A stretch of 64,000 nt of DNA from an uncultured Acidimicrobiales bacterium (GCA_963759645.1 CAVXAI010000019.1:6717-70716); one strand, 5' to 3'; shown: positions 34,863 through 49,929, counted from the stretch's first letter. The notes: generated from the letters alone by a model not told the origin. Numbers and translations are program-made.

Positions 34863-35037
34863 CGTCGGCTCCTCATCAGTCCTTCTTGGTTTCAACCACG
34901 GTCGACGAATGACTATCCCGTGTCAAGAAGGTCGGACAGATGCCTGGCCCGGGTTGCGCCAAGAGGCTCAGCGCTGAAGGGCTTCTAGGTCTTCCGGCCG
35001 GCTAACCCGCCGAGCCGGAAACATAGGATCCTTTCCG

Positions 35038-35517
35038 GTGAGCTCGCCGGAGGATGCGATCAAGCGAGTCGTTGAAGCGTTCGAGCGGTCAGAGTGGTCC
35101 GAGATCGACGTCCGTTCAGGCGACGTGCGCGTCCACCTGGCGACATCTGCGCCGACCGGCCCGCTGACCATCACGCCCGCTCCGGCGCCGGACGGCGCCG
35201 GCGACGATCGAGCCGCGGCGGAGTCCGATCCATCGACGACGTCGGCGAGCCCGCCGCCAACCGGTGCCTACGTCGTGGTGTCTCCCTCACCGGGAATCTT
35301 CTGGCGCTCACCGGAGCCGGGCCTGCCGCCGTTCGCGGATGTTGGCCACATCGTCGACGCGTCAGCGACGGTGTGCATCGTCGAGGTTATGAAGCTGATG
35401 AACCACGTCAAGGCTGGCGTGAGCGGTCAGGTCGTCGCCGTCTACTGCCTAAACGGCGGGGCGGTTCAGAAAGGGCAGGCCCTCTTCGCGATCGCTCCGT
35501 CCGAGTCGTCGTCTTGA
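35038..35517 (+). CDS. accB: Biotin carboxyl carrier protein
   Basis: SPSPGIFWRSPEPG; EVMKLM biotinylation motif; Pro/Ala linker (family symbol, probably not the fatty-acid ortholog). Confidence 0.9.
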   Translation: MSSPEDAIKRVVEAFERSEWSEIDVRSGDVRVHLATSAPTGPLTITPAPAPDGAGDDRAAAESDPSTTSASPPPTGAYVVVSPSPGIFWRSPEPGLPPFADVGHIVDASATVCIVEVMKLMNHVKAGVSGQVVAVYCLNGGAVQKGQALFAIAPSESSS

Positions 35518-36915
35518 CGCCGACCACCAGCATCCGTCGGGTCCTGGTCGCCAACCGCGGCGAGATCGCGGTGCGGATCATCCGGGCCTGCCGAGACGAG
35601 GGCATCGAGGCGATCGCGGCTGTCAGTGAGGCCGATCAGGAGTCGCTCGCGGCGCGTCTGGCGAACGATGTCGTCCACATCGGCCCGGCGAGTCCGACGC
35701 AGAGCTACCTACGTGTCGAGCAGATCGTCGCCGGCGCGCTCCTCACCTCCTGCGACGCTGTCCATCCTGGCTACGGCTTTCTGTCCGAGCGCGCCGACCT
35801 GGCCGAGGCGTGCGTCGCCCATGGGCTGATCTTCGTGGGTCCCTCCGCCGACACGATCCGGCGTGGTGGCGACAAGGTCGAGGCGCGCCGAATCGCACGC
35901 ACCGCCGGTGTTCCCACCGGCGCTGGCTCGGACGCGGTGAGACGCAGCCGCTGTCGCGCTCGAAGTCGCTAGCGCAGTCGGCTATCCGATCCTTCTCAAG
36001 GCCGCCGCAGGTGGCGGCGGACGAGGAATGGTCCGTGTCGACAGCCCGCGCGAGCTCGAAGCGATGTTTGGCACGGCGGCGCGCGAGGCCCGCGCTGCCT
36101 TCGGGGACGGGCGCATGTACGTGGAGCGGTACCTCGAGAACGCGAGGCACGTCGAGGTGCAGCTGCTCGGCGATCATCACGGCGGCATCGTCCACCTTGG
36201 CGACCGGGACTGTTCGACCCAGCGCCGCTTCCAAAAGCTGGTCGAAGAGGCGCCCGCCACCGCGCTGTCCAACGAGCTCGGCCAACGCCTCGCCGACGCC
36301 GCCGTCGCGCTCGGACGCCACCTCGACTACCACGGGGCAGGGACCGTCGAGTTCCTCGTCGATCTCGATCGCAGCGAGTTCTCGTTCCTCGAGATCAACA
36401 CCAGAGTGCAGGTCGAGCACCCGGTCACCGAGATGGTGACCGGCGTCGACATCGTGCGCGAGCAGCTCCGCATTGCTGCCGGCGAACCGCTGAGTTTCAT
36501 CCAAGACGACGTGGCGATCCGCGGACATGCCATCGAATGCCGCATCAATGCCGAATCGGTCGCCGCCGGGTTCCTCCCATCACCGGGCACGATCACCAAA
36601 TGGGAGCCACCGGCAGGCGACCATGTCCGCGTCGACAGTCACGGCTTCGTCGGCTACGAGATCCCGCCGTACTACGACTCTTTGATCGCCAAGCTGATCG
36701 TCTCGGGTGCCGACCGCGCCGAGGCGATCGAGGCATCGCTCAAGGCGCTCGACGACTTCGACATCGAGGGCGTCGAGACAACTCGGGAGCTCCAGCGTGC
36801 GGTGTTGTCGCACGACGACTTCCGGAACAACGTGATCAACACGCAATGGCTCGAGACGACCCTTCTGCCCACGGTGACGCCGACCCCGACTCCAAAGGAC
36901 TTGGCCCGTGGCTGA
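35514..36915 (+). CDS. accC: Biotin carboxylase (frameshift near 35945)
   Basis: VLVANRGEIAVR, HPGYGFLSE, KAAAGGGGRGM, RDCSTQRR, EINTRVQVEHPVTE; TTGA coupling. Confidence 0.93.
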
Positions 36916-38371
36916 GATCGACATCATCGACCAGACACTCCGCGACGGTCAGCAGAGCCTCTGGGGCATGCGCATGAAGGTCGCCCATCTTGCCGACGTC
37001 GCGGCTGACATCGATCAAGCTGGCTACCGGGTCGTCGACCTCACCGGCAGCTCGATCTTCGAGTGCATGATGCGGTACAACCACGAAGACCCGTGGGACG
37101 GGCTCGACGTGTGGCGATCGTGGCTGCCGAGCTCGCGGCTCAGATCCGGATCGCGCAGCAACTGCATCGGCAAGTTCGGCCTGACACCCGACTCCCTGAT
37201 GGAGCTCTGGATCCGAACGCTCGCCAAGCACGGCATCGACAGCTTCTGGATCTTCGACTGTCTCTACAACATGGACGCGATGGAACGTTTGTGTCGCGTC
37301 GTCGCCGACGTCGGGTGCGAGGTGGCGCCGGCGATCATGTACGGCATCAGCCCCGTGCACACCGACGCATGGTTTGCCGACCGGGTCCGTGAGTACGTGA
37401 GCTGGGGCATCACCGACGCGATCTACGTCGAGGACGCCGCCGGCATCCTGAAGCCGGAACGGGCGAAGACGCTCATGCCGGCGTTGATCGAGGCGGCCGG
37501 CGACGTCCCGGTCGAGATGCAGTGCCACAACACAGTCGGCGTGGCGGGGATGAACTACTTGATCGGTGTCGAGGCCGGGGTCAAGGTGCTGCACAGCGCA
37601 GCCGGGCCGATGGCGAACGGCCCATCGGTGCCGTCGACGGAGCAGACCGTCGAGAACCTGCGCTGGGAGGGTCACACGACCAGGGTCGATCTCGACCGAG
37701 TGCGGCGAGTCGGCGCTCACATGCGCCGCGTGGCCGAACAGGAGGGACACCCAGTCGGTGTGCCCAATGAGTACAACGTGTTCCCGTACCACCACCATCT
37801 CCCCGGCGGCATGACCGGCACACTCAAGGCGCAGCTCGCCCAGTACGACATGTCCGACCGCTTCGAGGAGGTACTCGAGGAGGTCGTGCGCGTCAGAGAG
37901 GAGCTCGGGCACCCGATCTCGGCCACTCCGTTCTCGCAGTTGGTGGGCATCCAGGCAGTGTTGAACGTCGTCACCGGTGACCGGTACGGCTCGGTTCCCG
38001 ATGAGGTGCTCGTCTACGTCCTGGGTCACCTCGGCGAGCCTCCCGCTCCCATCGACGAGAACGTGCTCGACCGGATGCTCGCGACCGATCGGGGCCGCGA
38101 GATGCAAGCGTGGGAGCCGCCGCAACCGACGATCCGCGAGCTCAAGATCCAGTACGGCGATCAAACGATGAGCGACGAGGAGCTCTTGCGGCGTTACCTC
38201 GTCCCGTTGCAGGACGTCGAGGCCATGCGCGCCGCGGGACCGGCGGCCCGCACCTATCAATTCGAGGACGACGGAATCCCCGAGTCGCTGATCAACGACC
38301 TGCTCGCCGGGACCCGGATCGGGTTCGCCGAGATCGAGGCGGGTGGGTCGAGCATCACGGTCCGGCGTTGA
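36908..38371 (+). CDS. Pyruvate carboxylase/oxaloacetate decarboxylase-type carboxyltransferase (stand-alone, atypical)
   Basis: DQTLRDGQQSLWG, HHLPGGM, VREELGHPISATPFSQLVG; no attached biotin domain. Confidence 0.88.
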   Translation: MAEIDIIDQTLRDGQQSLWGMRMKVAHLADVAADIDQAGYRVVDLTGSSIFECMMRYNHEDPWDGLDVWRSWLPSSRLRSGSRSNCIGKFGLTPDSLMELWIRTLAKHGIDSFWIFDCLYNMDAMERLCRVVADVGCEVAPAIMYGISPVHTDAWFADRVREYVSWGITDAIYVEDAAGILKPERAKTLMPALIEAAGDVPVEMQCHNTVGVAGMNYLIGVEAGVKVLHSAAGPMANGPSVPSTEQTVENLRWEGHTTRVDLDRVRRVGAHMRRVAEQEGHPVGVPNEYNVFPYHHHLPGGMTGTLKAQLAQYDMSDRFEEVLEEVVRVREELGHPISATPFSQLVGIQAVLNVVTGDRYGSVPDEVLVYVLGHLGEPPAPIDENVLDRMLATDRGREMQAWEPPQPTIRELKIQYGDQTMSDEELLRRYLVPLQDVEAMRAAGPAARTYQFEDDGIPESLINDLLAGTRIGFAEIEAGGSSITVRR

Positions 38372-38388
38372 GCACAAGGAGGGCATGC

Positions 38389-40017
38389 GTGACCAAGTAC
38401 GAGTTCGATACGACGCTCGACCCGAACTACCCCGTGCTCACGCGCGGCAACGCCGGCGAAATCATGCCCGACATCGTGTCGCCCCTGTCGGCGACGGTGT
38501 TCTTTCCCCCGCTCGAACGTGGGTGGCGACGTTCATTCACCGAGACATGGGACGTGATGGACTGGCCGGACTGCCCTACGACGTTCGCACCGATCGTCGG
38601 CGGAAGGTTCTACATCAACATCTCGGCCTTCCGGCGCCTCGCCGATCTCACTCCGGGGACGAGCCCGGAGGACATCGATCGCACCCTCTTCGCCGCCGGC
38701 GGCATCCGGCTCGATCCGTACGAGGCGCCCGATGAGGACGGCTATGCGGAACGCGGCGAGCGGATCGCCGCTGCCACCGCGTCCTTCCTCGACGATCCGC
38801 CGCTCGAACGCATCCAGCGTGAGCACGACGCCGCGCAGGCTCGTCGCGTGGAGGGCCGCGCCAAGCGGCGGACCAGTCCGAACGAGGAGCTGCTCGCTCG
38901 GTTCGAGTCGATGCAGCCGTTGATGGAGTCCGACTTCGTCAGCCTGTTCATCGGATCGTCGGTCAGCCCCGTGGCGTTCGGCTCATTACAGGCGGGCCTG
39001 GTCGAGGTGTACGGCGACGAGGGATATGAGCTCGGGCGGCAAGCGGTGATGGGCACCGGAGGGATCGAGTCGGCCGACGCCGGCAAGGCGGTCGCCCTGC
39101 TCGTCGGGCTCGAGGGCGACGAGTTCGAAGCGGCGTTCGAGCGGGTGCTCGAAAAGTACGGCTTCCGCGGCGTGAACGAGTGGGAGATCGCCGCACCGTC
39201 GTGGGAGATCCGGCCGGACGTGCTGCGTCGCGCCGTCGACGCTGTGAGGGCGGGTGGCACCGAGCGCGATCCCGACTCGATCCGCAAGGCGGCGATGGCG
39301 AAGTTCGAGGAGGACGGCGTCCGGGCCAGGTTCGCGGACCTCGATCAGTCGTTGGAGCGCTGCAAGGTCTGGCTCGGCGTGCGCGAGCGGACGAAGGCGA
39401 CGTGTGTGCTGACCATCAACGAGATGCGACTCGACGCGCTCGAGATCGGTCGACGACTGGCATCGGACGCCAAGTTGGAGTCGGCCGATCAGATCTACTT
39501 CCTCACGTTCGACGAGTTCCGCGCCGCGGCTCGCGGCAGCGATGTCGACCTCGATCGGGTCCATTCGCGACAGGCGGCCAAGGCCGACCTACTGCGATAT
39601 CAGGAACCGTTGTTCGCGATCGCCGGAGAGGTCCCCCCAGTCGAGGAGTGGGTCCTCAAGTCGGACGCCACCACCGACACGGGCCCCGAGGACGAGGTCG
39701 TCGGCGCCGCCGGTAGCCCGGGTGTCGCGACAGGGCGTGCCCGCGTCGTCATGGACGCCTACGCCGACGACCCAACCGAGCCGGGGGAGGTGTTGGTCGC
39801 TCCGATCACCGATCCCGGGTGGATGCCCCTCTTCATCGGTGCCGTCGCTGTGGTCACCGAGATGGGCGGCGAGCTCAGCCACACGATGATCGTGTCGCGA
39901 GATCTGGGGATCCCCGCCGTCGTCGGCGCGGTGGGCGCCACCTCGTTGGTCAAGACCGGTGACCTCGTCGAGGTCGACGGATCGAACGGCGTCGTGCGGA
40001 TCCTCGAACGCGCGTGA
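38389..40017 (+). CDS. PEP-utilising enzyme mobile (phospho-His swivel) domain protein without ATP-binding domain
   Basis: AAGGAGG RBS; TRGNAGEIMPDIVSPLS; YGFRGVNEWEI; GSPG...TDPGW...GGELSHTMIVSRDLGIPAVVG...VDGSNG. Confidence 0.88.
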   Translation: MTKYEFDTTLDPNYPVLTRGNAGEIMPDIVSPLSATVFFPPLERGWRRSFTETWDVMDWPDCPTTFAPIVGGRFYINISAFRRLADLTPGTSPEDIDRTLFAAGGIRLDPYEAPDEDGYAERGERIAAATASFLDDPPLERIQREHDAAQARRVEGRAKRRTSPNEELLARFESMQPLMESDFVSLFIGSSVSPVAFGSLQAGLVEVYGDEGYELGRQAVMGTGGIESADAGKAVALLVGLEGDEFEAAFERVLEKYGFRGVNEWEIAAPSWEIRPDVLRRAVDAVRAGGTERDPDSIRKAAMAKFEEDGVRARFADLDQSLERCKVWLGVRERTKATCVLTINEMRLDALEIGRRLASDAKLESADQIYFLTFDEFRAAARGSDVDLDRVHSRQAAKADLLRYQEPLFAIAGEVPPVEEWVLKSDATTDTGPEDEVVGAAGSPGVATGRARVVMDAYADDPTEPGEVLVAPITDPGWMPLFIGAVAVVTEMGGELSHTMIVSRDLGIPAVVGAVGATSLVKTGDLVEVDGSNGVVRILERA

Positions 40018-40751
40018 GCATCGACTTCGACTTCACCGGACGCACCGTCATCGTGACCGGTGGCGCGCGTGGGATCGGGCGCGCGCTCAGCCAGTTCTTC
40101 GCGGAGTCCGGTGCGACCGTCGCGGTCGCCGACGTCGATGGCGAGGCGCTCGCCGCGGTCGCGACGGACCTCGCCGGCGTGATCCCGCTCGAGATCGACG
40201 TTGCCGACGCCGCCTCGGTCGCCGCCGGGGTCGGTGACGTCCTGGCCCGGACGGGGCGGATCGACGTCGTGGTCAACAACGCCGGCATCCTGCGCGATCG
40301 CGTCGTGTGGAAGCTCACCGATGCCGACTGGCAAGCGGTGCTCGGCGTCCATCTGACCGGCACGTTCAACATGACCCGCGCCGCGATACCGGCCATGCGC
40401 GAGCAGGGCTACGGCCGCTTCGTCAACGTCACGTCGTACACCGGTCTGCACGGCAACGTCGGGCAGGCCAACTACGCCGCCGCCAAGGCCGGCATCATCG
40501 GCTTCACCCGAACGACTGCCAAGGAGCTCGCTCGGTTCGGCATCACCGTGAATGCGATCTCGCCCAACGCCGAGACCGACATGGTGGCCTCGATCCCGGA
40601 GGACCGACGCGAGGAGCTGCGCGCCGAGATCCCGATGGGCCGCTTCTCCGCACCGTCCGAAGTGGGTCCCGCCGTCGGCTTTCTCGCCTCGGAGGAGGCC
40701 GGCTACATCACGGGTGTCGTGCTTCCCGTCGACGGCGGGCTGTCGATCTAG
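40014..40751 (+). CDS. Short-chain dehydrogenase/reductase, FabG/acetoacetyl-CoA reductase-like
   Basis: TGGARGIG, NNAG, GQANYAAAK; GTGA coupling. Confidence 0.92.
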   Translation: MSIDFDFTGRTVIVTGGARGIGRALSQFFAESGATVAVADVDGEALAAVATDLAGVIPLEIDVADAASVAAGVGDVLARTGRIDVVVNNAGILRDRVVWKLTDADWQAVLGVHLTGTFNMTRAAIPAMREQGYGRFVNVTSYTGLHGNVGQANYAAAKAGIIGFTRTTAKELARFGITVNAISPNAETDMVASIPEDRREELRAEIPMGRFSAPSEVGPAVGFLASEEAGYITGVVLPVDGGLSI

Positions 40752-40760
40752 CCGGACCCG

Positions 40761-41408
40761 CTAGCCGGACCAGCTGTCGCACATCATGACGTCGTCGACC
40801 GCGAGTCGCCGTACCGGTCCGAAGCGCCCGACTGGGAACCCGACGGGTATCACCGCCTGGGCGCGGACGTGTCTCGGGAGCTCGAGCACCGACTCGAGCT
40901 CGTCGCGGAACGCCAGCGCGTAGGTCGTCGGCACCGCGCCGAGCCCTGACGCACGGGCGGCCAGCAACAGGTTCTGGACACCCGGCCAGACCGAGCTGGC
41001 GTACCGGCCGGGATCCTGGGTTGCGTCGTCCATGACGCAACAGGCGACGACGATGACCGGTGCCTCGTGCATGTGCTCGGCCTGCCAGAGCACGGCGTCC
41101 CACATGCGGCGCCGACGGTCGCGCTCATGGTGCGGCAACTCACGGCCTGCCTCGCGCTCGGCGGTGGCGTGGTCGAGGCTCGCCCGCCGGTTGAAGTCTC
41201 CGAGGCGGCGACGTTGCGCCGGATCTCGGACGATGATCCAGCGCGCACGCTGGAGGTTGCGTCCCGATGGCGCGTAGTTCGCGGCCTCGACCAGACGTCG
41301 CACCACGGCGTCGGGCACGGGGTCGGGTCGGAGCCGTCGCATCGCGCGGCACGTCGACATCACCTCGAAGACGCCAGGTCCGTCGCGATCGGCGGATGAC
41401 TCGGACAT
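40761..41408 (-). CDS. Nitroreductase family protein
   Basis: RAMRRLRPDPVP, APSGRNLQ, VQNLLLAARASGLG. Confidence 0.9.
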   Translation of the reverse strand: MSESSADRDGPGVFEVMSTCRAMRRLRPDPVPDAVVRRLVEAANYAPSGRNLQRARWIIVRDPAQRRRLGDFNRRASLDHATAEREAGRELPHHERDRRRRMWDAVLWQAEHMHEAPVIVVACCVMDDATQDPGRYASSVWPGVQNLLLAARASGLGAVPTTYALAFRDELESVLELPRHVRAQAVIPVGFPVGRFGPVRRLAVDDVMMCDSWSG

Positions 41409-41458: not shown

Positions 41459-43033
41459 GTGCCCTCGCCGCTCCACGATCAGCCGCTGCTCCCTCACCTC
41501 ATCGTCCGGAGCCTCGCCGCCCACGACGACGCGCCGTGCATCCATCTCGCTGGGCGGGTCGCGTCATACGCGGAGGTTCGACAGCGGACGAGCCAGCTGA
41601 TCCAGGCTCAACGGGCGCGGGGCGTGACGTGCGGGACCCGCCTCGCCGTGCTGTCGAAGAACCGTCCGGAGGTCCTCACCAACCTGACGGCATCGCTCGT
41701 CAACGGTTGCGTGGTGACGCCGCTGCACCCGATGGGCTCATTCGCGGACCACTCCTACGTGATCGCCGATGCCGAGATCGAGTGCCTCGTCTTCGACGCA
41801 GACAACTTCACCGAGCGCGCTCACGACCTGAAGGCGCAACATCCGAATCTCACGCTGCTCGGCTTCGGTCCGAACGATGTCGGCGACGACTACCTCGCGC
41901 TCGCCGACGAGTTCGAGCCGGCGCCGCTCGTCGCCCCCGACGTAGGTCCGGATGACCTGTGCACGATCGTCTACACCGGCGGCACGACCGGGCGGCCCAA
42001 GGGTGTGCTCATGCCCCATCGCGTGTGGCAGGCGATGACGTGGATCCAGATGGCCGAGTGGGAGTTCCCCGACGACCTGCGGATCGCGATCGCGACGCCG
42101 CTGTCCCATGCTGCGATGTCGCTCGTCGCGCCCGTGCTGCTGTCGGGCGGAGCGTTCTACGTGATGGAGTCGTTCGACCCGGGCGGCTTCTTCGACCTCG
42201 TCGCGGAGCATCGCATTACGGCAACGCTGATCGTTCCCGTCATGTTGTACGCGCTGCAGGGCCATCCTCGGTACGACACGGCCGACATGTCGTCGATGGA
42301 GACCATCTTCTACGGGGCGTCGCCGATGAGCCCGGCCAAGCTCGCGCGTGCGATCGAGGACTGGGGGCCGATCTTCTTCCAGGTCTACGGGCAGACCGAG
42401 GCGCCGATGGTCCTCACCCACCTGAAGAAGAGCGAGCACGATCTCGCGCGTCCGGATCGCCTTGCGTCGTGTGGCCGCCCCGTGCCCTGGATGCACGTCG
42501 CCCTGCTCGACACCGACAACCGACCCGTCGCGGCGGGCAGTTCGGGGGAGATCTGCACTCGGGGTCCGCTCGTGATGACTGGATACAAGGGTCTCGTCGA
42601 CGAGACCGCCGAAGCGCTGTCGGGCGACTGGTTGCACACAGGCGACGTCGGCCGCTTCGACGATGACGGCTACTTGTACATCGTCGACCGGACCAAGGAC
42701 ATGGTGATCAGCGGCGGCTTCAATGTGTTCCCTCGCGAGGTCGAGGACGTGATCAGCACGCACCGCGCCGTGAACACGGTCATGGTCATCGGCGTGCCGG
42801 ACGAGAAGTGGGGAGAAGCGGTGAAGGCCGTCGTCGTGCTTCAGCCGGGTCACCAGCCCTCGGACGCGTTGACGCGAGAGCTCCAACAGTTGGTGAAGGA
42901 CGCGAAGGGTTCGCAGCAGTCGCCGAAGTCGATCGACTACGTCGAGGCGATACCGCTCACTCCCGTCGGCAAACCGGACAAGAAAGCGGTGCGGGCCCAG
43001 TACTGGGCCCGCACCGATCGAGCGGTGTCCTAG
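41459..43033 (+). CDS. Acyl/aryl-CoA synthetase (AMP-binding)
   Basis: YTGGTTGRPKG, YGQTE, LHTGD, DRTKDMVISGGFNV, GKPDKK. Confidence 0.93.
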   Translation: MPSPLHDQPLLPHLIVRSLAAHDDAPCIHLAGRVASYAEVRQRTSQLIQAQRARGVTCGTRLAVLSKNRPEVLTNLTASLVNGCVVTPLHPMGSFADHSYVIADAEIECLVFDADNFTERAHDLKAQHPNLTLLGFGPNDVGDDYLALADEFEPAPLVAPDVGPDDLCTIVYTGGTTGRPKGVLMPHRVWQAMTWIQMAEWEFPDDLRIAIATPLSHAAMSLVAPVLLSGGAFYVMESFDPGGFFDLVAEHRITATLIVPVMLYALQGHPRYDTADMSSMETIFYGASPMSPAKLARAIEDWGPIFFQVYGQTEAPMVLTHLKKSEHDLARPDRLASCGRPVPWMHVALLDTDNRPVAAGSSGEICTRGPLVMTGYKGLVDETAEALSGDWLHTGDVGRFDDDGYLYIVDRTKDMVISGGFNVFPREVEDVISTHRAVNTVMVIGVPDEKWGEAVKAVVVLQPGHQPSDALTRELQQLVKDAKGSQQSPKSIDYVEAIPLTPVGKPDKKAVRAQYWARTDRAVS

Positions 43034-43042
43034 AAGGGCGAA

Positions 43043-44362
43043 TTAGCTGGGCGGCAGGGCCAAGTCGCCGACGTCCTCGAAGTCGGTCGTCAGCGGAACG
43101 ACCTTGCCGTTCTCGAGGGTGCTGTACACGACGCTGCGATTGAACAGGCGCTGGTAGCCCTCGAGGCCGTCGGACCACTCCTCGGTGAAGTTGAGCACCG
43201 GCACCATGCCGTTCAGATCGAGCTCGGACGTGGCCGACGCCGCCTCGTAGAACGACTCGGCCGTGATGTCACCGTCGATCGTCTCGGCGATCTGGGTGAA
43301 CGCGACGAACGCGGCCCAGGTGCCCATTCCGCCGAGCGAGTTGTAGTCGAGCGCAGTGGTGTCGAGACCGGCTTCGTCGAGCGCGACCCGATACTCCGAC
43401 CACGGATCGGTCGAGATGTCCGGGTACATGCCGACGATGATGTCGCCGTCGGTGGCTTCTTCGTTGCCGGCCGCGGAAACCTCGTTGAGGTTGCCCTGCG
43501 GACCGTACTGACGAGCCTCCGTGCCGGACTGGGTCCAGGCGGTGTTCCAGGTGATGTACGGCGTCTCGGAGATGATCCCGATCACACAGTCAGCATCCGT
43601 GGTCGCCTGGGCCACCTCGGCGGAGTAGTCCTGGGCGGTCGGCGGCAGGATGATGACGTCACCGAAGGACGTGCCGAGGTTCGCCATGGCGTTCTCCATC
43701 GGGGGGATGAAGATCTGGGCGCCGTCGATGATGACCGCGTTGATGCTCGTGCATCCGTCGTCGACGGCCTTCTTGACCGCTCCGACGGCGTACATCGGTT
43801 GGTTCCCGATGTTGAACGAGTAGGGACTCGTCAGCTCGGACGGCGTGATCGGGCAGCACGCACCGAACCAGGTGATGCTGGATTCGGCGATGACGGGCAC
43901 GATCGACTCGGCGAAGAACGTGAACGAGCCGACGATGGACACCATGTCCTCGTCGACCGCCTGCCGAGCGCACGTCGTCGCGACGGCCGGGTCGAACTGC
44001 TCGTCGCAGACGGTGACCTCGAGCGGCCGGCCGGCGATGCCGCCGCGGGCGTTGATGTAGTCGGCGTACGCCTCGGCGGTGTTGGCGATGTTCTCATAGG
44101 TCGGGCCCGCGGCGTTGAGCGTGGTCACGGTCATGACCTTGATCGGCTCGCCGCTCGGTGCCTCGCCCGAGGCCGCGGTGGTTCCCGCGGAGTCTGCCGC
44201 AGTGGTTGCCGCAGAGTCGGCTGCAGTGGTCGCTGCAGATGAGTCTGTGTCGTCGTCGTCGCCACACGCAGCGACCAGAAGGCCGGCGACAGCGATCAGC
44301 GCCAGCGAGCGTCGCCACGAACGCCGACTCGGAATCGAACGCGGGTCACCCCTAGTAGGCAT
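43043..44362 (-). CDS. Liv-type ABC transporter substrate-binding lipoprotein
   Basis: Lipobox VAAC-GDDDD; INARGGIAGRPLE..CD; Thr/Ala linker. Confidence 0.9.
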   Translation of the reverse strand: MPTRGDPRSIPSRRSWRRSLALIAVAGLLVAACGDDDDTDSSAATTAADSAATTAADSAGTTAASGEAPSGEPIKVMTVTTLNAAGPTYENIANTAEAYADYINARGGIAGRPLEVTVCDEQFDPAVATTCARQAVDEDMVSIVGSFTFFAESIVPVIAESSITWFGACCPITPSELTSPYSFNIGNQPMYAVGAVKKAVDDGCTSINAVIIDGAQIFIPPMENAMANLGTSFGDVIILPPTAQDYSAEVAQATTDADCVIGIISETPYITWNTAWTQSGTEARQYGPQGNLNEVSAAGNEEATDGDIIVGMYPDISTDPWSEYRVALDEAGLDTTALDYNSLGGMGTWAAFVAFTQIAETIDGDITAESFYEAASATSELDLNGMVPVLNFTEEWSDGLEGYQRLFNRSVVYSTLENGKVVPLTTDFEDVGDLALPPS

Positions 44363-44458
44363 CTTGTTCCCCCCCAGTTGCTGACAATGTGACGGGCGCC
44401 GGACGCGCACCGACCACGGACAATAGAGCACAATACATGGGACGTTAGAGGGGGCCGG

Positions 44459-47215
44459 GTGAACGAGGTCATCCGATTCGCGTTGTTGGGGCTGGGTGTT
44501 GGCGCGTTGTACGCCTTCGCGTCCCAAGGCCTGATCGTGATCTACCGCGGCACCGGGGTGTTGAACTTCTCGCTCGGCGCGACCGCGATTGCGGGCGTCT
44601 TCATGCAGTGGGAGCTGCACAGCTCGGCCGGTTGGCCCTTCTTGCTGGCGTCGATCGCCGGCGTCGCGTGGGCTGCCTTCCTGGGAGCACTCACCTACTG
44701 GGTGGTGATGCGACCGTTGCGGCGTGCGAGCTCTCTGGTCCGGGTGATCGCCACGCTCGGTGTGCTGATCACGATCCAGGCGGCCCTCGTGATCCGGTAC
44801 GGCTCCAACTCTCGCCAGATCGAGAGCTGGCTCCCGACCGACCGGTTGACGCTGTGGGGAGATGTCGGCATCACGGCCGATCGACTCATCCTGCTCGCCA
44901 TCGGTTGCGTATCGGCGTTCGGCCTGTGGCTCCTCTATCGGTCGAGCCAGTTCGGCCTCGCCACTGAGGCGGTTTCCGAGAGTGAACGGTCGGCAGCAGC
45001 GATCGGGTTGTCGCCCAACCGGATCGCGCTGATGAACTGGGCGCTGGGCTCCGCGATCGCCACCGTCGCCGGGGTCCTCGTGGTCCCCATCATCACGCTG
45101 CAGGTGACGGTCATGACGACCCTCATCCTGGCCGCGCTCGCGGCTGCGTTGGTCGGCGACTTCCGATCGTTCCCCATCGCCACGGCCGCCGGGTTCGCGA
45201 TCGGCATCGGCCAGGCCCTGGTGGGACGGTTCGGCAACCAGGAGGGTCTCGGACCGTCCCTGCCGTTCCTGGTGATCATCGTGGTCCTGGTGTTCCGGGG
45301 CCGATCACTGCCGCTGCGCGACTACTACCTGCAGAAGCTGCCGATCGTCGGCAACGGTCGCATCAAGTGGGCGTGGACCCTCTTCGCATGCGGCGCAGTC
45401 GTCTTCATCATGGTCACCAAGGAAACGAAGTGGATCGACGCGATCACCGTTTCCATGGGGGTGGCCATCGTCTTGCTGTCGATCGTCGTGCTGACCGGGT
45501 ACGCCGGCCAGCTCTCGCTCGCGCAGTACTCGATCGCCGGCTTTGGCGCGTACGTCGCCGGCCGTTCCGTCGCCGTGTTCGACATCCCGTTCCTCCTCGG
45601 GTTGGCGCTCGGTGTCGCCGCGGCGGTTCCGCTCGGGCTGATCTTCGGCCTCCCCGCGGTGCGAACCAGGGGCATCAACCTGGCGATCGTCACGCTCGGC
45701 CTGGGCACCACCATCGAGCTGATGCTGTTCAAGAACCGCAACTACACGGGCGGCGTCCAGGGCACACAGGTCGGCAATCCCGACCTGTTCGGGTACGACA
45801 TCGGCTCGATCAACTTCCCCGAGCGCTACGGGATCTTCGTCTTGGTCATGCTGATGCTCACCGTCGTCGTGGTCGCCAACGTACGGCGGGGCCGCAGCGG
45901 TCGGCGGCTGATCGCCGTGCGCACCAACGAGCGGGCGGCCGCGGCGCTGGGGATCAACGTGATGGTGGCGAAGCTCTTCGCGTTCTCGTTCGCCTCTGCG
46001 ATCGCCGCGCTGGGCGGCATCGTGCTCGCGTTCCGGCTCAGCTCCATCAGCTACTCGTCCTTCAGCAACGTCACCTCGATCACGTACGTCGGGTTGGCAC
46101 TCCTCGGCGGTGTCGGCCAGCTGCTCGGCGCACTCGTCGGTTCCACATTGGCAACGGCGGGCGTCAACCAGGAGATGCTCGAAACGCACTGGGAGGGGGT
46201 CGGTCGGTGGATTCAGCTGATCAGCGGGATCGGGATCCTGCTCACGCTGGTCATCTACAAGGACGGCGTCGCCGCCGAGTGGCTCAGGATGTCTCGCGCC
46301 ATCAAGAAGATGAGGAAGTGGAGCCGGCCCTACACCATCGAGCTCGCCGATGTCGCCGATCTCGGGGCCCAGGTCGATCGTCACGCCCGGGTTCCGGCGC
46401 GCACACTGATGGTCGAGGGCATGACGGTGCGTTACGGCGCGGTGGTCGCCGTGAACAACGTGAGCTTCCGAGTCGAGCCCGGCAATGTCATGGGTCTCAT
46501 CGGACCGAACGGTGCCGGCAAGACCTCCCTGATCGATGCGATCAGCGGGTTCACCGCTGCGGAGGGCCGCGTACTCCTCGACGACCTCGATCTGTCGAAG
46601 CAGTCAGCGGTGAAACGAGCCCGGGCCGGCTTGGCCCGGTCGTTCCAGTCGCTCGAGCTGTTCGAGGACTCGACCGTGTTCGAGAACCTCAGCGTGGCGG
46701 CCGACCCGCAGGATCTGCGCTCGTACCTGACCGATCTGGTCTGGCCGATCAATCCGCCGCTCCCGCCCGAGGTGGTGCGGGCGGTCACCGAGTTCGATCT
46801 CGACCAGGATCTGCATCGCGACGTGCAGGACCTGTCCTACGGGAAGCGGCGGCTCCTCGCCATCGCCCGCGCCGTCGCGATGCATCCCAGCGTGCTGCTG
46901 CTCGACGAGCCTGCCGCGGGCCTCAGCTCGAACGAGAGCAGCGAACTGGCCCGCGTGGTCCGGCGCCTGGCCGACGACTGGGGCATGGCCATCGTCGTCG
47001 TGGAGCACGACATGAACTTCGTGATGCGTGTCTGCGATGAGCTGACCGTGCTCGACTTCGGGTCGCTGATCGCGTCGGGTCCGCCCGACGCGGTCCGCTC
47101 CGATCCAGTGGTAGTCGCGGCATATCTCGGCGACGACAGCGACAACGCTCCTGACGCCGATCGCTCACTAGCCGAGTCGCCGGCGGCGGCATCGGTCGCG
47201 GGTGGTGCGTCATGA
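44459..47215 (+). CDS. Fused Liv-type ABC permease-permease-ATPase (LivH-LivM-LivG-like)
   Basis: Two permease domains, GPNGAGKT, LSYG, LLLDEP, EHD. Confidence 0.93.
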   Translation: MNEVIRFALLGLGVGALYAFASQGLIVIYRGTGVLNFSLGATAIAGVFMQWELHSSAGWPFLLASIAGVAWAAFLGALTYWVVMRPLRRASSLVRVIATLGVLITIQAALVIRYGSNSRQIESWLPTDRLTLWGDVGITADRLILLAIGCVSAFGLWLLYRSSQFGLATEAVSESERSAAAIGLSPNRIALMNWALGSAIATVAGVLVVPIITLQVTVMTTLILAALAAALVGDFRSFPIATAAGFAIGIGQALVGRFGNQEGLGPSLPFLVIIVVLVFRGRSLPLRDYYLQKLPIVGNGRIKWAWTLFACGAVVFIMVTKETKWIDAITVSMGVAIVLLSIVVLTGYAGQLSLAQYSIAGFGAYVAGRSVAVFDIPFLLGLALGVAAAVPLGLIFGLPAVRTRGINLAIVTLGLGTTIELMLFKNRNYTGGVQGTQVGNPDLFGYDIGSINFPERYGIFVLVMLMLTVVVVANVRRGRSGRRLIAVRTNERAAAALGINVMVAKLFAFSFASAIAALGGIVLAFRLSSISYSSFSNVTSITYVGLALLGGVGQLLGALVGSTLATAGVNQEMLETHWEGVGRWIQLISGIGILLTLVIYKDGVAAEWLRMSRAIKKMRKWSRPYTIELADVADLGAQVDRHARVPARTLMVEGMTVRYGAVVAVNNVSFRVEPGNVMGLIGPNGAGKTSLIDAISGFTAAEGRVLLDDLDLSKQSAVKRARAGLARSFQSLELFEDSTVFENLSVAADPQDLRSYLTDLVWPINPPLPPEVVRAVTEFDLDQDLHRDVQDLSYGKRRLLAIARAVAMHPSVLLLDEPAAGLSSNESSELARVVRRLADDWGMAIVVVEHDMNFVMRVCDELTVLDFGSLIASGPPDAVRSDPVVVAAYLGDDSDNAPDADRSLAESPAAASVAGGAS

Positions 47216-48102
47216 CGGCCGCGCTGCTGGAGACGCGCAACCTCAAGGCCGGGTACCTGAGCAGAGAGGTGGTTCGGGCGGTCAATCTCAAGGTGCAGCG
47301 CGGCGAAGTCGTGTGCCTGCTCGGCCCGAACGGCGCGGGCAAGTCCACCACGTTGCTGACGATCGCCGGCGAGCTGGCGCCAGTCGACGGGATCGTCATG
47401 TTCAACAACGTCCCGACCTTCACGGCCATGGATCGGCGGGTCCGCGACGGTGGCATCGGCCTGATCACCGAGCAACGCCTGGTGTTCACGAAGATGTCGG
47501 CACGCGACAACCTGCGCCTCGGCGGCGGCTCGGTCGAGGCCGCGCTCGCGCTGTTCCCCGAGCTCGAACCCCGATTGTCGGTGAGGGGCGGGCTGCTCTC
47601 GGGCGGCGAGCAGCAGATGTTGGCCCTCGCCCGCGCTCTGAGTCGGAATCCGTCGCTGCTGCTTGCCGACGAGCTGTCGCTCGGGCTCGCGCCCAAGATC
47701 GTCGACCGGCTTCTCGGCGCGGTCCGAACCGCGGCGGACGAACGCGGCACAGGGGCGCTGATCGTCGAACAGCACGCCCACAAGGCGTTGAGGTACGCCG
47801 ATCGGATGTATCTGATGGCGCGCGGGCAGATCCTGCTCGAGCTCTCCGCCGCCGAGGCGCTCCAGCGCCTCGACGAGATCGAAGACGCCTACCTGAGCGG
47901 CACCTCCGAGACCGAGGAGGACCACATCGAGCGGCTGCGGCGGAAGAACAAGAAGAAGCAGTGGAAGCGCCAGCGGGTTCGAGAGCGCGAGCTCGAACGG
48001 CTGAGCGGGCAGGTCGTTTCCACGAGGAAGGCAGAGGATGACGACTACTACCTCGACACAGACCAGCGTCTGCGTTCCTGGGCCAAGCGCGTGAGGAGGT
48101 AG
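47212..48102 (+). CDS. Liv-type ABC ATPase (LivF-like) with charged C-terminal extension
   Basis: GPNGAGKST, LSGGEQQM, DELSLGLAP. Confidence 0.92.
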   Translation: MTAALLETRNLKAGYLSREVVRAVNLKVQRGEVVCLLGPNGAGKSTTLLTIAGELAPVDGIVMFNNVPTFTAMDRRVRDGGIGLITEQRLVFTKMSARDNLRLGGGSVEAALALFPELEPRLSVRGGLLSGGEQQMLALARALSRNPSLLLADELSLGLAPKIVDRLLGAVRTAADERGTGALIVEQHAHKALRYADRMYLMARGQILLELSAAEALQRLDEIEDAYLSGTSETEEDHIERLRRKNKKKQWKRQRVRERELERLSGQVVSTRKAEDDDYYLDTDQRLRSWAKRVRR

Positions 48103-48107
48103 CGGAC

Positions 48108-49901
48108 GTGGGTTACAGAACCTCAGAACTCCCGCCTGTCGAGCTCGACGAGTTCGCCAAGATCCCGTTCCTCCAGCGGATGAAGCTGCTCCAGCTCCAC
48201 TGGGTGGAGTCGGGATTCGGAACCCCGAAGCAGACGATCAACTTCTACGTCTGGAAGATCTTCTTCTACGCGCTCTTCGGGTTGATCTTCTGCGGAGCGT
48301 TCACGAAGGGCCTCGAGTTCGACAACATCGCGGGATGGTGGGACCAACCGATCCTGTACCAGAAGCTGATGATCTGGACGATCCTGCTGGAGATCCTCGG
48401 GCTCGCCGCGACGTGCGGCCCGTTGGCGTTCCACTTCGACCCGCCGATCGGTGGCGTCCTGTACTGGTGGCAGAACGACACCCTTCGCGTCCCGCCCTAT
48501 CCCAATCACGTGCCGTTCACCAAGGGGAATCGGCGCACGCCGTGGGACACCGGGCTCTACAAGCTCATCGTGTTCTGGCTCGTCATGATGATGTTCCTGT
48601 CCGGCGTGCAGGTCGATGGTCTGCCGGAGGGCTCGATCGGCGTCATGCCGCAATGGGCGCTGGTGACCTACTGCGGCCTGATCCTGTTGATGGGCTTCCG
48701 AGACAAGATCGTGTTCCTGTCGGCGCGCTCGGAGCAGTACGTCCCGACCATGCTCTACTTCGGGCTGTTCACCAACTTCGTCGACATGATCGTCGCCGCC
48801 AAGATCTGCATGGTCGTGATCTGGATGGGAGCCGGCTTCTCGAAGCTGCAGCACGGCTTCTCGTCCACGGTGGCGATCATGGTCCAGAACACCCCGTGGA
48901 TGGTGTCCCAGCGTTTCCGCAAGGCGACCGTCAAGGACTACCCGAACGACATCCGACCATCGAAGGTCACGCACGCGTTGGCACACATCGGTGGTACCAC
49001 GTGTGAGTTGGTGATGCCGTTGGTGCTGCTGTTCTCACCGTGGCCGTGGTTGACCTGGATCGCCATCATCTCGATGTGGATGCTCCACACCTTCATCATC
49101 TCCACGATCCCGTTGGCGGTCCCGTTGGAGTGGAACGTGTTCTTCATGTTCGCCGTCGCGTTCCTGTTCGCCAACTTCTCGCCCAGTGAGGGGTACGGGG
49201 TCGCGGACATGGATCCAGTCCTGCTCGCGATCGTCGTGTGTGTCGCTCTCGCGCCGATCGTCCTCGGCGCTCTTCGACCGCAGTACGTGTCGTTCCTGGT
49301 TGGGATGAAGCAATACGCCGGCAACTGGGCCTCGGCCACGTTCTCGTTCCGCAACAAGTCGATGGAGGACCGGATCAACGAGCGGATCGTGAAAGCCGCC
49401 GACAACCAGATCGATCAGCTCAACCCTCTGTTCGGCAACGAGATCTCGGAGATCTTCATTCAGAAGGCGGTGGCGTTCCGCATGATGCACCCGATGGGCC
49501 GGATGCACATCTCGGCCCTGATGCGTCACACGGAGAGCCTCGACAACAGGATTCAACGCGAGGGCGAGTTCGTCAGCAACGTTCTCACCGGCTGGAACTT
49601 CGGCGATGGCCACTGTCTCGACGAACGCCTCATCGCCGCGCTCCAGGAGCGATGCCAGTACGAGCCGGGCGACGTGATCGTCGCGTTCACCGAGTCGCAG
49701 CCGGCCTTCAGCAAGAAGGTGCAGTACCGGGTCATCGACGCCGCCCTGGGCACCGTCGAAAAGGGCTGGTACCACAACGACGACGCCTACAACGAGCAGC
49801 CGTGGCTGCCCAACGGCCCGATCCCGCACACCGTCACCTGGACCCTCCCCGGATACGAAGCGCCGGGGGTTCCTCATCCGGGTAGCGGCGGTCGAGTGTG
49901 A
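48108..49901 (+). CDS. DUF3556 family transmembrane protein
   Basis: HWVESGFGTP, GPLAFHF, PLAVPLEWN, YAGNWAS, GWNFGDGH. Confidence 0.85.
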   Translation: MGYRTSELPPVELDEFAKIPFLQRMKLLQLHWVESGFGTPKQTINFYVWKIFFYALFGLIFCGAFTKGLEFDNIAGWWDQPILYQKLMIWTILLEILGLAATCGPLAFHFDPPIGGVLYWWQNDTLRVPPYPNHVPFTKGNRRTPWDTGLYKLIVFWLVMMMFLSGVQVDGLPEGSIGVMPQWALVTYCGLILLMGFRDKIVFLSARSEQYVPTMLYFGLFTNFVDMIVAAKICMVVIWMGAGFSKLQHGFSSTVAIMVQNTPWMVSQRFRKATVKDYPNDIRPSKVTHALAHIGGTTCELVMPLVLLFSPWPWLTWIAIISMWMLHTFIISTIPLAVPLEWNVFFMFAVAFLFANFSPSEGYGVADMDPVLLAIVVCVALAPIVLGALRPQYVSFLVGMKQYAGNWASATFSFRNKSMEDRINERIVKAADNQIDQLNPLFGNEISEIFIQKAVAFRMMHPMGRMHISALMRHTESLDNRIQREGEFVSNVLTGWNFGDGHCLDERLIAALQERCQYEPGDVIVAFTESQPAFSKKVQYRVIDAALGTVEKGWYHNDDAYNEQPWLPNGPIPHTVTWTLPGYEAPGVPHPGSGGRV

Positions 49902-49929
49902 CAACAGGCGCGACCGCCCGCTTGACATC

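Follow-up and report, generated by a model that had tools for sequence, protein, structure and literature searches.

What donates phosphate to a histidine-swivel protein that has no ATP-binding domain and is encoded beside a biotin carboxylase? The question is raised by the five-gene operon BCCP-BC-CT-SW-SDR in a 64,000-nt stretch of DNA from an uncultured Acidimicrobiales bacterium, hereafter the window.

Organization and conservation of the operon

Re-reading of the window recovered the five genes (Table 1) with the coordinates and junctions given in a preliminary description, which had noted their tight linkage by overlaps or by a 17-nt gap, the latter lying between CT and SW. That description had missed that the BC reading frame is split near position 35939 in the window's assembly. 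One base is absent at this position in the contigs of two independent studies (X5 and X7; two further runs have no coverage there) and BC is unbroken across the region in orthologs L030, L032, L036, L040 and L045, and for these reasons the frameshift is probably an assembly error.

Table 1. Features of the operon and its downstream neighborhood
Feature	Coordinates	Strand	Basis
BCCP, biotin carboxyl carrier protein, 159 aa	35038..35517	+	PF00364 47.6 bits; upstream of BC in orthologous loci too
BC, biotin carboxylase, one-base frameshift near 35939	35514..36915	+	PF00289, PF02786, PF02785 on two pieces
CT, stand-alone pyruvate-carboxylase-type carboxyltransferase, 487 aa	36908..38371	+	PF02436, PF00682
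SW, RPH-type acceptor domain + C-terminal His swivel, 542 aa	38389..40017	+	PF00391, residues 464-534, sole Pfam match
SDR, classical, 245 aa, FabG/acetoacetyl-CoA reductase-like	40014..40751	+	PF13561, PF00106, NCBIfam, motifs
Nitroreductase-family gene, often linked	40761..41408	-	PF00881; present in several orthologous loci
FadD8-like acyl-CoA ligase, start estimated	41459..43033	+	NF004838 601 bits, cut-off 875 not reached
Branched-chain-type ABC transporter, often linked	43043..48102	mixed	PF13458, PF02653, PF00005; synteny
DUF3556 membrane protein + FAD oxidoreductase, often linked	48108..51378	+	PF12077, PF01593; synteny

Synteny analysis revealed that the operon is conserved far beyond chance: an SW ortholog (75-94% identity) is found in 18 of the 20 loci examined, with CT upstream of it in 17 of these 18. 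The SDR gene, whose coupling to the carboxylase had been presented as a distinguishing trait, does adjoin SW in the window; however, it is the least constant member of the operon (directly 3' of SW in 10 of the 14 informative loci), and a carboxylase of this type is already known to be fed by a dehydrogenase (Hped1, PMC10715001). One locus, L046, has SW-SDR without CT. The Asp40 residue of SDR suggests NAD(H) as the cofactor. Downstream, FadD matches are present in 9 of 18 orthologous loci, and the FadD8-like ligase is a candidate activator of the carboxylated product. In the ABC transporter, the binding protein is encoded on the minus strand, and a fused permease-ATPase and an ATPase on the plus strand.

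Phylogenetic placement of the carboxyltransferase

In our phylogenetic analysis, CT lies outside the PYC/OadA clade. A quick tree also separates it (SH-aLRT 99 and 100) from five Hpe/MarK-type proxies defined by gene order; identity to an Hpe-type proxy is 38%. CT scores 326 bits against NF006761 (vs 402) and carries the motifs VEDAAG and QCH in place of IKDMAG and HxH of PycB/OadA, so that Glu175 and Gln205-x-His207 occupy the places of residues that we take to be the active-site Lys and the metal ligands. Furthermore, CT retains an Arg near position 79-82, which is missing in Hpe-type rows. Residues, family score and tree rule out a PycB role, in line with the earlier expectation that CT differs from canonical PycB. 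Judging from these sequence comparisons, CT is not PycB, groups apart from the Hpe/MarK-type proxies and probably represents a clade sister to the Hpe/MarK-type carboxyltransferases.

Consistent with the initial observation that the operon lacks both an ATP-grasp kinase subunit and a HAD phosphatase, no HAD tag was found in 94 rows of the CT clade, and neither a stand-alone ATP-grasp protein of the HpeI/AcvB type nor MarK was found in the window or among the 23 rows of the CT clade. The sister CT clusters contain a truncated PPDK, carrier, small swivel, acceptor, CoA ligase, thiolase and phosphatase (L125, 64%; L072/L073, 49%; L109, 46%), and in many of them the truncated, VadK-type PPDK is accompanied by a protein of ~200 aa with a winged helix and a helical bundle. 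We also considered whether SW is homologous to the ~520-aa acceptor in these clusters and dropped the idea, as BLASTP gave no match at E 0.01.

In 22 of 49 CT-clade loci of at least 10 kb, neither a relay gene nor a kinase gene is seen within 9 kb, which argues that the clade can do without phosphorylation. These loci, L046 and the Arg near position 79-82 would all fit a reading in which SW and the carboxylase have separate targets or work in another order, SW phosphorylating, for example, the alcohol product of SDR for a biosynthetic or envelope function and the carboxylase using an unphosphorylated keto acid or ketone; the envelope/biosynthetic proposal for Rv2047c (PMC2443190) agrees with it. 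However, the linkage of CT to SW is tighter (17/18) than that of SW to SDR (10/14), and HpeCBA requires the phosphorylated substrate (PMC9618137). We regard this reading as unlikely. The matter is independent of the identity of the donor.

SW resembles rifampin phosphotransferase lacking the ATP-grasp domain

The structural model of SW (pLDDT 85.9) has rifampin phosphotransferases (RPH) as all of its six best Foldseek matches (E 1e-20 to 2e-16), with a sequence identity of about 20%. R332, E333, K336 and H498, the latter in the swivel motif SHTMIVSR, are invariant in 120 of 120 homologs and alignable to RPH. The model reveals SW as an RPH minus the ATP-grasp, that is, as an acceptor fold with retained catalytic residues and no nucleotide-binding domain. 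Indeed, an ATP-grasp is absent from the SW chain and from adjacent genes in both the window and the orthologous loci, and the SW homologs listed span 486-567 aa in a search restricted to 298-949 aa. Thus, the original characterization of a swivel protein with the SH..IVSR histidine and no ATP-binding domain stands. Its assignment as a phenylphosphate-synthase-like subunit of the Hpe/Acv type does not: against NF006153 (HpeH/PpsA; PRK08296 models, which also cover AcvA), SW scores 101 bits (cut-off 578) over the swivel only (residues 418-541), compared with 772 bits for Hpe-type proxy L113, and by this profile SW falls outside the HpeH/PpsA family. A proposed resemblance to Rv2047c holds for the acceptor domain and fails for SDR, which is a separate FabG-like gene downstream; the score against NF004520, for the Rv2047c family (PRK05865), is 106 vs 1509 bits.

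ATP-grasp-less RPH-like proteins number about 10 per genome here, so the orphan state is a trait of this large family, to which SW belongs, rather than a peculiarity of the operon. Most paralogs are situated away from carboxylases, and the nearest outside relative of SW (44%) neighbors the carrier discussed below and a His-phosphatase-like gene. Both observations count against phosphate recycling, whereby SW would move phosphate from the carboxylated product to fresh substrate, replacing the ATP-grasp subunit and the phosphatase and needing only occasional priming. Recycling would account for the lack of both functions in the operon, and HpeH alone can transfer phosphate from phosphoacetophenone to acetovanillone, but at 2.7 nmol/min/mg, the full kinase reaching about 0.7 U/mg (PMC12167813). 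We consider it quite improbable as the explanation, and it is compatible with a relay.

Search for a phosphoryl donor

The donor had been left as PEP, a partner in trans or the ATP-grasp of the carboxylase. For the latter we found nothing in support, the paralogs being mostly distant from carboxylases. A search with PF01326 covered the host genome (G000, 78% complete) and ten others; in genomes with the operon, all matches were PPDK, PEP synthase or fused RPH-like genes, and the stand-alone, HpeI-type form was not found in the host, five other operon genomes or G359, G423 and G426, so the PPDK_N-only partner for which a genome search had been suggested was not found. An ordinary two-component kinase of the Hpe/Acv type, with its HpeI-type subunit encoded in sequence missing from the assembly, would be consistent with the incompleteness of the host genome and with the adjacent HpeI-type genes of some related acceptors. 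Against it, SW lies outside the HpeH family, and no stand-alone PF01326 protein was detected in G021 (98% complete), G014 (96%), G359 (94%) or any of six further genomes, bar a contig-edge piece in G383, and we rate this explanation as very improbable. G383 does not contain the operon.

A truncated PPDK (PRK05878) was not found in six operon genomes (G000, G010, G014, G021, G061 and G062), which have full-length PPDK only; for this lineage, the idea of a VadK-type donor was therefore given up in favor of the carrier model. Enzyme I was likewise rejected: the PEP-barrel query of the host genome retrieved PPDK and PEP synthase and nothing else. The findings are best read as a phosphorylate-then-carboxylate pathway whose donor acts in trans, with PPDK plus a carrier as the candidate.

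A candidate phospho-His carrier

The candidate carrier is a protein of ~200 aa modeled as a winged helix followed by a four-helix bundle. A homolog of the 201-aa gene following the PRK05878 gene in L111 is present in the host genome. The carrier gene is located there at C13:393033-393668, where it is frameshifted, possibly through an assembly error since the copy in G010 is intact, and full PPDK at C17:477230-479838. His187 is invariant in 29/29 and 120/120 homologs and forms an invariant pair with His194. Judged by gene position and size alone, the carrier probably belongs to the Rv1126c family. Fold searches return no more than generic matches to winged helices and four-helix bundles (Z at most 12), which name no family and show no new fold; the ESM Atlas yielded only unnamed or 'transcriptional regulator' clusters.

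The distribution of the carrier follows that of the orphan acceptors. It is found in 96 genomes of an order-level sample of 201 phylogenetically related genomes, including all 48 with SW-clade acceptors and all 26 with a split small-swivel/acceptor type. For a second acceptor clade the count is 37 of 39, leaving aside 6 genomes whose sole match lies in frames of 850 aa or more; of the two exceptions, one has an adjacent HpeI-type gene and the other is at a contig end. In a phylum sample (n=201), the carrier is absent from 10 of 11 genomes with SW-profile matches only in frames of at least 870 aa and present in 5 of 8 with short frames, two of the other three having an adjacent HpeI-type gene. 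Up to 8 candidates per genome were scored for the SW clade, the second clade and the phylum sample. The Fisher test of co-occurrence (p about 1e-19) takes no account of relatedness, and we do not count it as evidence. Genomes G566 and G184 have short acceptor-like genes without the carrier or a visible partner. Moreover, the carrier is fused to PPDK without ATP-grasp in L119, L121, L186 and L190, and to PPDK without the PEP barrel in L185, L208 and L209, while G359, assembled in one contig, combines the operon with a PEP-barrel/carrier fusion and no full PPDK. In 7 order-sample genomes, the carrier lies within 1.6 kb of an acceptor gene (pairs picked by eye).

We modeled the complex of SW with the G010 carrier. 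The score was 0.77, compared with 0.02 for the best of three controls (unrelated proteins, no other swivels); the mark used is attained in 116 of the 157 solved complexes and in 2 of the 215 mismatched pairs. The runs share at least 96% of their contacts, with partner pLDDT of at least 83. The carrier is predicted to dock on the swivel with His187 on His498 (expected error 1.7 A), and the predicted interface includes winged-helix residues 17-20 and 56-66 of the carrier.

PRD-domain regulators also combine a winged helix with a His bundle and are controlled by phosphorylation. The small protein might similarly be a phosphorylation-controlled transcription regulator that senses the phosphorylation of PPDK or swivels and controls these operons, with SW loaded directly by PPDK or PEP synthase. 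Its N-terminal domain resembles MarR-type winged helices (Z up to 12), databases annotate the family (2,525 matches) as MarR regulators, the stand-alone gene often neighbors dapA-rnj, and 30 of the 96 carrier-positive genomes have none of the three acceptor types, so that the carrier may have another job. However, the near-strict dependence of three acceptor families on the carrier, lifted where an HpeI-type subunit adjoins, and the use of winged-helix residues in the predicted SW interface argue against regulation, which we hold to be rather unlikely.

Proposed pathway

We favor, with some confidence, a three-subunit biotin carboxylase working with SW, which would phosphorylate a hydroxylated ketone using phosphate delivered in trans from PPDK via the carrier. 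The PPDK swivel histidine, phosphorylated from PEP or from ATP and Pi, would pass its phosphate to His187 and on to His498, comparable to EI-HPr-EII; the co-occurrence of the carrier with the orphans, its fusion to or proximity to PPDK fragments and its presence beside full PPDK in the host are consistent with this. In a weaker form, the carrier would only dock the partners. SW would then phosphorylate a substrate hydroxyl, BCCP, BC and CT would carboxylate the carbon adjacent to the keto group, a phosphatase encoded outside the operon would remove the phosphate, and the FadD8-like ligase would form a CoA ester. Least securely, SDR might oxidize a secondary alcohol to the ketone or reduce a beta-keto product. 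The substrate is probably neither acetovanillone nor hydroxyacetophenone; literature on plasmid hosts gave no clue to it.

More tentatively, and with somewhat less than even confidence, we suggest that Actinomycetota and some Proteobacteria have a hitherto undescribed PTS-like network in which a donor derived from PPDK (the full enzyme, a PEP-barrel fragment or VadK) and a new-family phospho-His carrier charge, on demand, ATP-grasp-less RPH-type kinases numbering up to about ten per genome. The operon would be one branch, equipped with a new carboxylase clade, and VadK-Rv1126c of M. tuberculosis would really output to Rv2047c for phosphomycoketide synthesis; by extension, the relay could explain the mycobacterial VadK/Rv1126c/Rv2047c set. 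The carboxylase half alone is a variant of a known pathway type; the donor system would be of a new kind. If true, the relay would assign a function to an uncharacterised family annotated as MarR regulators and show by what means the very common 'PEP-utilizing enzyme' orphans could function. Full-length PPDK would gain a second role, supplying phosphate throughout the cell, and phosphorylation-carboxylation catabolism would have a third kinase type beside HpeHI and MarK. It also makes the target of VadK and the source of the mycoketide phosphate testable.

Comparison with known systems

The Hpe, Acv and MarK-Acv systems and Xcc(Hac)ABC of Aromatoleum share with the operon a three-subunit biotin carboxylase, whose PC-type CT is a stand-alone protein, next to a phosphotransferase (PMC9618137, PMC12167813, PMC12624787, PMC10715001). 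A CoA ligase is likewise nearby, and a dehydrogenase may precede the carboxylase. By contrast, CT here belongs to the sister clade with other metal-site residues, the kinase belongs to neither the HpeH/HpeI nor the MarK type, a HAD phosphatase is missing and the donor is proposed to act in trans. RPH (PMC4844700; PDB 5HV1, 5FBU) shares with SW the acceptor fold, the Arg-Glu-x-x-Lys phosphate site and the C-terminal His swivel, whereas SW shows no sign of rifamycin specificity.

In M. tuberculosis, the truncated PPDK VadK (Rv1127c) autophosphorylates its own His and is stabilised by co-expression of Rv1126c; regulation of the methylcitrate cycle was proposed, and Rv2047c is not among the five filtered pull-down hits (PMC13400623). 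The genes rv1127c, rv2047c and pks12 display a similar TnSeq pattern (PMC13400623, PMC7058343, PMC2443190). The two cases share a PPDK-derived His kinase that lacks a PEP barrel and is encoded beside a small partner gene, together with an ATP-grasp-less swivel protein in the same genome, but the published model makes VadK a regulator of methylcitrate enzymes, assigning Rv1126c no role and drawing no connection to Rv2047c (PMC13400623, PMC7058343, PMC2443190). Here, the donor would instead be full PPDK or a PEP-barrel fusion, and the NAD-binding domain fused N-terminally in Rv2047c corresponds to no part of SW, SDR being a separate downstream gene.

The proposed relay can also be compared with the PTS. 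As in the PTS (EI-HPr-EII) and the PTS-dependent dihydroxyacetone kinase DhaKLM, phosphate derived from PEP would travel between histidines by way of a small carrier, here one that serves several terminal enzymes. The parts differ: the donor would be PPDK-derived, no Enzyme I being found in the host genome, the carrier has a non-HPr fold and the terminal enzymes are of the RPH type. In our best reading, the relay would be PTS-like and built of different parts, with the contact between His187 and His498 a prediction from modeling.

Operon anatomy and conservation

The window sequence bears out the preliminary description of the operon: all five genes are there, with the overlaps and the 17-nt gap that it gave, and domain profile searches agree with its assignment of a BCCP, a biotin carboxylase (BC), a stand-alone pyruvate-carboxylase-type carboxyltransferase (CT), a 542-aa swivel protein (SW) and an SDR. 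BC is frameshifted near position 35939 in the window assembly. Because one base is missing at this site from contigs of two soil studies, independent of each other (two other runs examined do not span it), and several BC orthologs are unbroken at the matching region, we treat BC as intact. Single-base frameshifts are frequent throughout the source genome, G000 (78% completeness), and hit otherwise conserved genes, including PPDK, the carrier discussed below, a fused gene resembling rifampin phosphotransferase (RPH) and an ABC permease; G000 looks like an indel-prone long-read assembly whose broken genes should not be taken for pseudogenes.

The named relatives are MAGs of Acidimicrobiia and other Actinomycetota, and SW is matched at 75–94% identity in 18 of the 20 loci returned. 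The gene set is conserved: CT lies upstream of SW in 17 of 18 loci, sometimes with intervening genes, 10 of 14 loci of sufficient extent have an SDR ortholog directly after SW, and a FadD match is present in 9/18. The CT–SW pair occurs in three further genomes (G014, G021 and G359; locus L050 is a repeat of L045). CT at ≥78% identity is found in just 3 of 400 other order-level genomes, and the distribution of the operon is patchy.

Coordinates of features in the window, in contigs (C) of G000 and in compared loci (L) of other genomes (G)
Feature	Location	Remarks
Operon	window 35038-40751	
686-aa protein, divergent from operon	window 32835-34895 (minus)	HEASH metallopeptidase-like motif, C-terminal PLAT domains (PF01477); common only to G000 and same-genus genome
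DUF3556 membrane protein and FAD oxidoreductase	window 48108-51378	linked to the operon and the ABC transporter across several families
Frameshifted sites (examples)	window 27220-28648, 54779-57574	
Frameshifted sites (examples)	C17:477230-479838, C8:547851-549839	
Stand-alone carrier, frameshifted	C13:393033-393668	genome with full PPDK; intact copy in same-genus G010
Tandem SW-clade paralogs	C8:1752185-1755664	about 31% to SW; ABC1/UbiB kinase fragment (judged by eye) adjoins
Serial acceptor-plus-swivel units (two) with a single ATP-grasp	L215:1713-6413 (G604)	1567-aa frame
HpeH/PpsA-like protein	L171:3369-5123 (G010)	judged by eye
Split-type acceptors	C8:1060041-1061659; L192, L199, L213	
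Carrier fused to VadK-type protein	L185, L208, L209	
Stand-alone carrier by dapA-RNase J	L187, L189, L194-L198, L200	housekeeping position
Well-supported CT subclades without nearby kinase or relay gene	L108, L256, L269, L273, L276, L286, others	
MarK-type plasmid clusters	L075, L076, L217	Tm-1-like kinase, BCCP, BC, CT, HAD; Pseudomonas, Sphingobium, Novosphingobium records
Homolog of sister-cluster tyrosine phosphatase	C8:294676	

SW belongs to a family of orphan acceptors

The predicted model of SW (pLDDT 85.9) matches RPH alone over its full length (six top Foldseek hits, TM 0.48–0.65). R332, E333 and K336 of SW align with R666, E667 and K670 of RPH, which bind the product phosphate, R666 and E667 being essential (PMC4844700). 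Together with the swivel residue His498, they are invariant in 120/120 SW homologs. The gene set and missing kinase subunit of the initially proposed pathway stand; SW itself lies outside the family of HpeH, a kinase subunit of the hydroxyacetophenone pathway. The HpeH-family model, with its cut-off of 578, scores SW at 101 bits, all of them contributed by the swivel, and the kinase of a canonical HpeH–HpeI–carboxylase–HAD cluster on a Rhizobium plasmid at 772 bits.

G000 has 14 swivel matches and three ATP-grasp loci, all inside longer proteins (PEP synthase, PPDK and the fused RPH-like gene). The search for a PPDK_N-only partner, suggested earlier, found no stand-alone ATP-grasp gene in G000 or in five other operon genomes, each with 6–15 swivel matches. 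Being an orphan is thus characteristic of the whole family and calls for a general donor. Tandem pairs of SW-clade paralogs recur in other genomes, and the serial ATP-grasp/double-acceptor architecture is present in several genomes of one family, all without the carrier.

CT represents a separate clade

A quick tree was built from 111 rows, leaving out two metagenome loci and any locus with <370 aligned residues. The window CT falls there within an SW-linked clade of 23 rows, itself nested in a 94-row clade; the metagenome rows were gathered with patterns from the window's CT clade, biasing sampling towards it. As for the relationships raised in the preliminary description, the 94-row clade is apart from PYC/OadA and, in this quick tree, from five Hpe-/MarK-type proxies, picked by gene order to stand in for characterised HpeB, AcvD and XccC sequences. 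In the alignment, CT has Glu175 in place of the PycB active-site lysine and Gln-x-His in place of the His-x-His metal ligands; Hpe-type rows retain both. We regard the window carboxylase as a new form within a known kind.

The carrier is encoded within 9 kb of CT in 19 of the 94 clade rows; a PPDK-type ATP-grasp is near CT in 13 and SW in 17, and HpeH, HpeI, MarK and HAD occur within 9 kb in 0/94. Of the 49 loci spanning 10 kb or more, 22 show no relay gene. CT subclades without kinase or relay neighbours are further uncharacterised biotin carboxylases.

A candidate phosphate carrier

The nearest annotated CT clusters, on Rhodococcus plasmids (49%), a Novosphingobium plasmid (46%) and in G167 (64%), combine a swivel-only gene with genes for a truncated PPDK (PRK05878), a protein of ~200 aa and another of ~520 aa and unassigned family; they further encode a CoA ligase, a thiolase and a protein of tyrosine-phosphatase or SurE type. 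A truncated PPDK and the 200-aa gene are likewise found close to the best plasmid relatives of SW. In Mycobacterium tuberculosis, the truncated PPDK Rv1127c (VadK) autophosphorylates His422, and its solubility is improved by co-expression with its operon partner Rv1126c (PMC13400623); from gene position and size we infer that the 200-aa carrier belongs to the Rv1126c family. Truncated PPDK was not found in six operon genomes. Among 23 genomes screened (G167, G383 and 21 carrying the operon or SW), 20 have the carrier domain, nearly always in single copy. Besides the stand-alone form, seen in genomes such as G000 that have a full PPDK, it is fused either to a PPDK that keeps the swivel and PEP barrel without the ATP-grasp, or to a VadK-type protein. 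The single-contig genome G359 (94%) carries the operon and lacks a full PPDK, and its one weak ATP-grasp match falls inside its own swivel-bearing frame; its sole PPDK-type gene is therefore the PEP-barrel fusion, and the donor there would be PEP. The stand-alone gene is often directly upstream of dapA and an RNase J gene, including in genomes without a detected acceptor.

The carrier model (pLDDT 96.9) comprises a winged helix (1–80) and a four-helix bundle, with only generic fold matches (Z at most 12). Q108, S185, H187, W190, E192, H194 and R205 are invariant in 29/29 and then 120/120 further homologs. The G010 carrier folded with SW residues 428–542 scores 0.77 versus 0.02 for the best control; the score mark is reached by 116/157 solved complexes and 2/215 mismatched pairs, counts that are only rough with our own alignments. 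Runs agree in no fewer than 96% of contacts, pLDDT of the partner is 83 or above, and the predicted interface engages both carrier domains, placing residues 187 and 191 against His498 of SW. This prediction supports binding of the carrier to the SW swivel. The controls were unrelated proteins rather than other swivels, and the score may reflect swivel binding in general, which a relay requires and a regulator model equally allows.

Co-occurrence of carrier and acceptors

For all profiles we used one fixed set of 201 order-level genomes, scoring up to eight acceptor candidates per genome; the counts include related genomes, which are not independent. The carrier is found in 96 genomes, including 48/48 with an SW-clade acceptor (profile without swivel) and 26/26 with a split-type acceptor. 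The split type, a 130–240-aa swivel-only gene followed by a 370–520-aa protein without Pfam match, is a second, sequence-unrelated acceptor family. For the second acceptor clade, six of 45 genomes were dropped (sole match in a frame ≥850 aa; 3/6 without carrier), and 37 of the remaining 39 have the carrier; of the two exceptions, G194 has an HpeI-type gene next door and G184 lies at a contig end. Counting against a relay, 30 of the 96 carrier-positive genomes have none of the three acceptor types.

In a phylum sample (n=201), the carrier occurs in 16 genomes and the SW profile in 19. Eleven of the latter have it only in frames ≥870 aa, and 10/11 are carrier-negative (ATP-grasp fusion was confirmed directly in G604 alone). 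Among the eight short-frame genomes, five are carrier-positive (two with adjacent genes), two have an adjacent HpeI-type gene and G566 has neither. Genome size alone is no explanation, since within mixed families carrier and acceptor turn up in the same genomes (f7, 1/5; f16, 4/5), and 2-Mb genomes can hold both. Carrier and acceptor genes, in pairs picked by eye, are ≤1.6 kb apart in seven genomes.

Proposed mechanism and relation to known systems

Beside the observed operon anatomy, conservation, fusions and co-occurrence, we place a relay from PPDK through the carrier to SW, which we regard as rather probable. Phosphate would pass from the PPDK phosphohistidine to carrier His187, to SW His498 and to a substrate hydroxyl. 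Carboxylation next to a keto group would follow by analogy with HpeCBA, which acts on the phosphorylated ketone only (PMC9618137); a hydroxy-ketone type of substrate, phosphorylated and then carboxylated, is a tentative assignment on this analogy, with slightly less than an even chance. CoA ligation and thiolysis might come next, by analogy with the Aromatoleum route, Hped1-HacABC-AcsA1-TioL1 (PMC10715001), and with the sister clusters. The phosphate could be removed in trans by a phosphatase, G000 having a homolog of the sister-cluster tyrosine phosphatase; bypass of this step through recycling is conceivable because HpeH by itself can move phosphate from one aryl substrate to another (PMC12167813). 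The relay may likewise serve the HpeH/PpsA-like protein of G010, a genome in which the search turned up no HpeI-type gene.

In mycobacteria, the release and phosphorylation of mycoketide have been proposed as the role of Rv2047c (PMC2443190). Six-condition TnSeq gives NE ES GD NE NE ES for rv1127c, NE ES ES NE NE GD for rv2047c and NE GD GD NE NE GD for pks12, a weak link because mmpL5, mmpS5, irtB and murI have the same pattern (PMC7058343). The available text of the VadK paper, which favours regulation of the methylcitrate cycle, does not mention Rv2047c, and the five filtered pull-down hits that it lists are other proteins (PMC13400623); a term search found neither Rv2047 nor ppdK in the available text of PMC13622277. 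A PPDK–carrier–acceptor relay was not found in the literature searched, most subscription journals being outside its scope. From sequences and models, the proposed donor relay would likely be a new kind of system. For phosphorylation–carboxylation chemistry, HpeHI/AcvAB and MarK are the known kinases, and the only ones for which the MarK survey looked (PMC12624787); the proposed relay is distinct from both. PTS and DhaKLM are phosphate relays of another kind. The PPDK–carrier–acceptor system would work like them without being a member of either.
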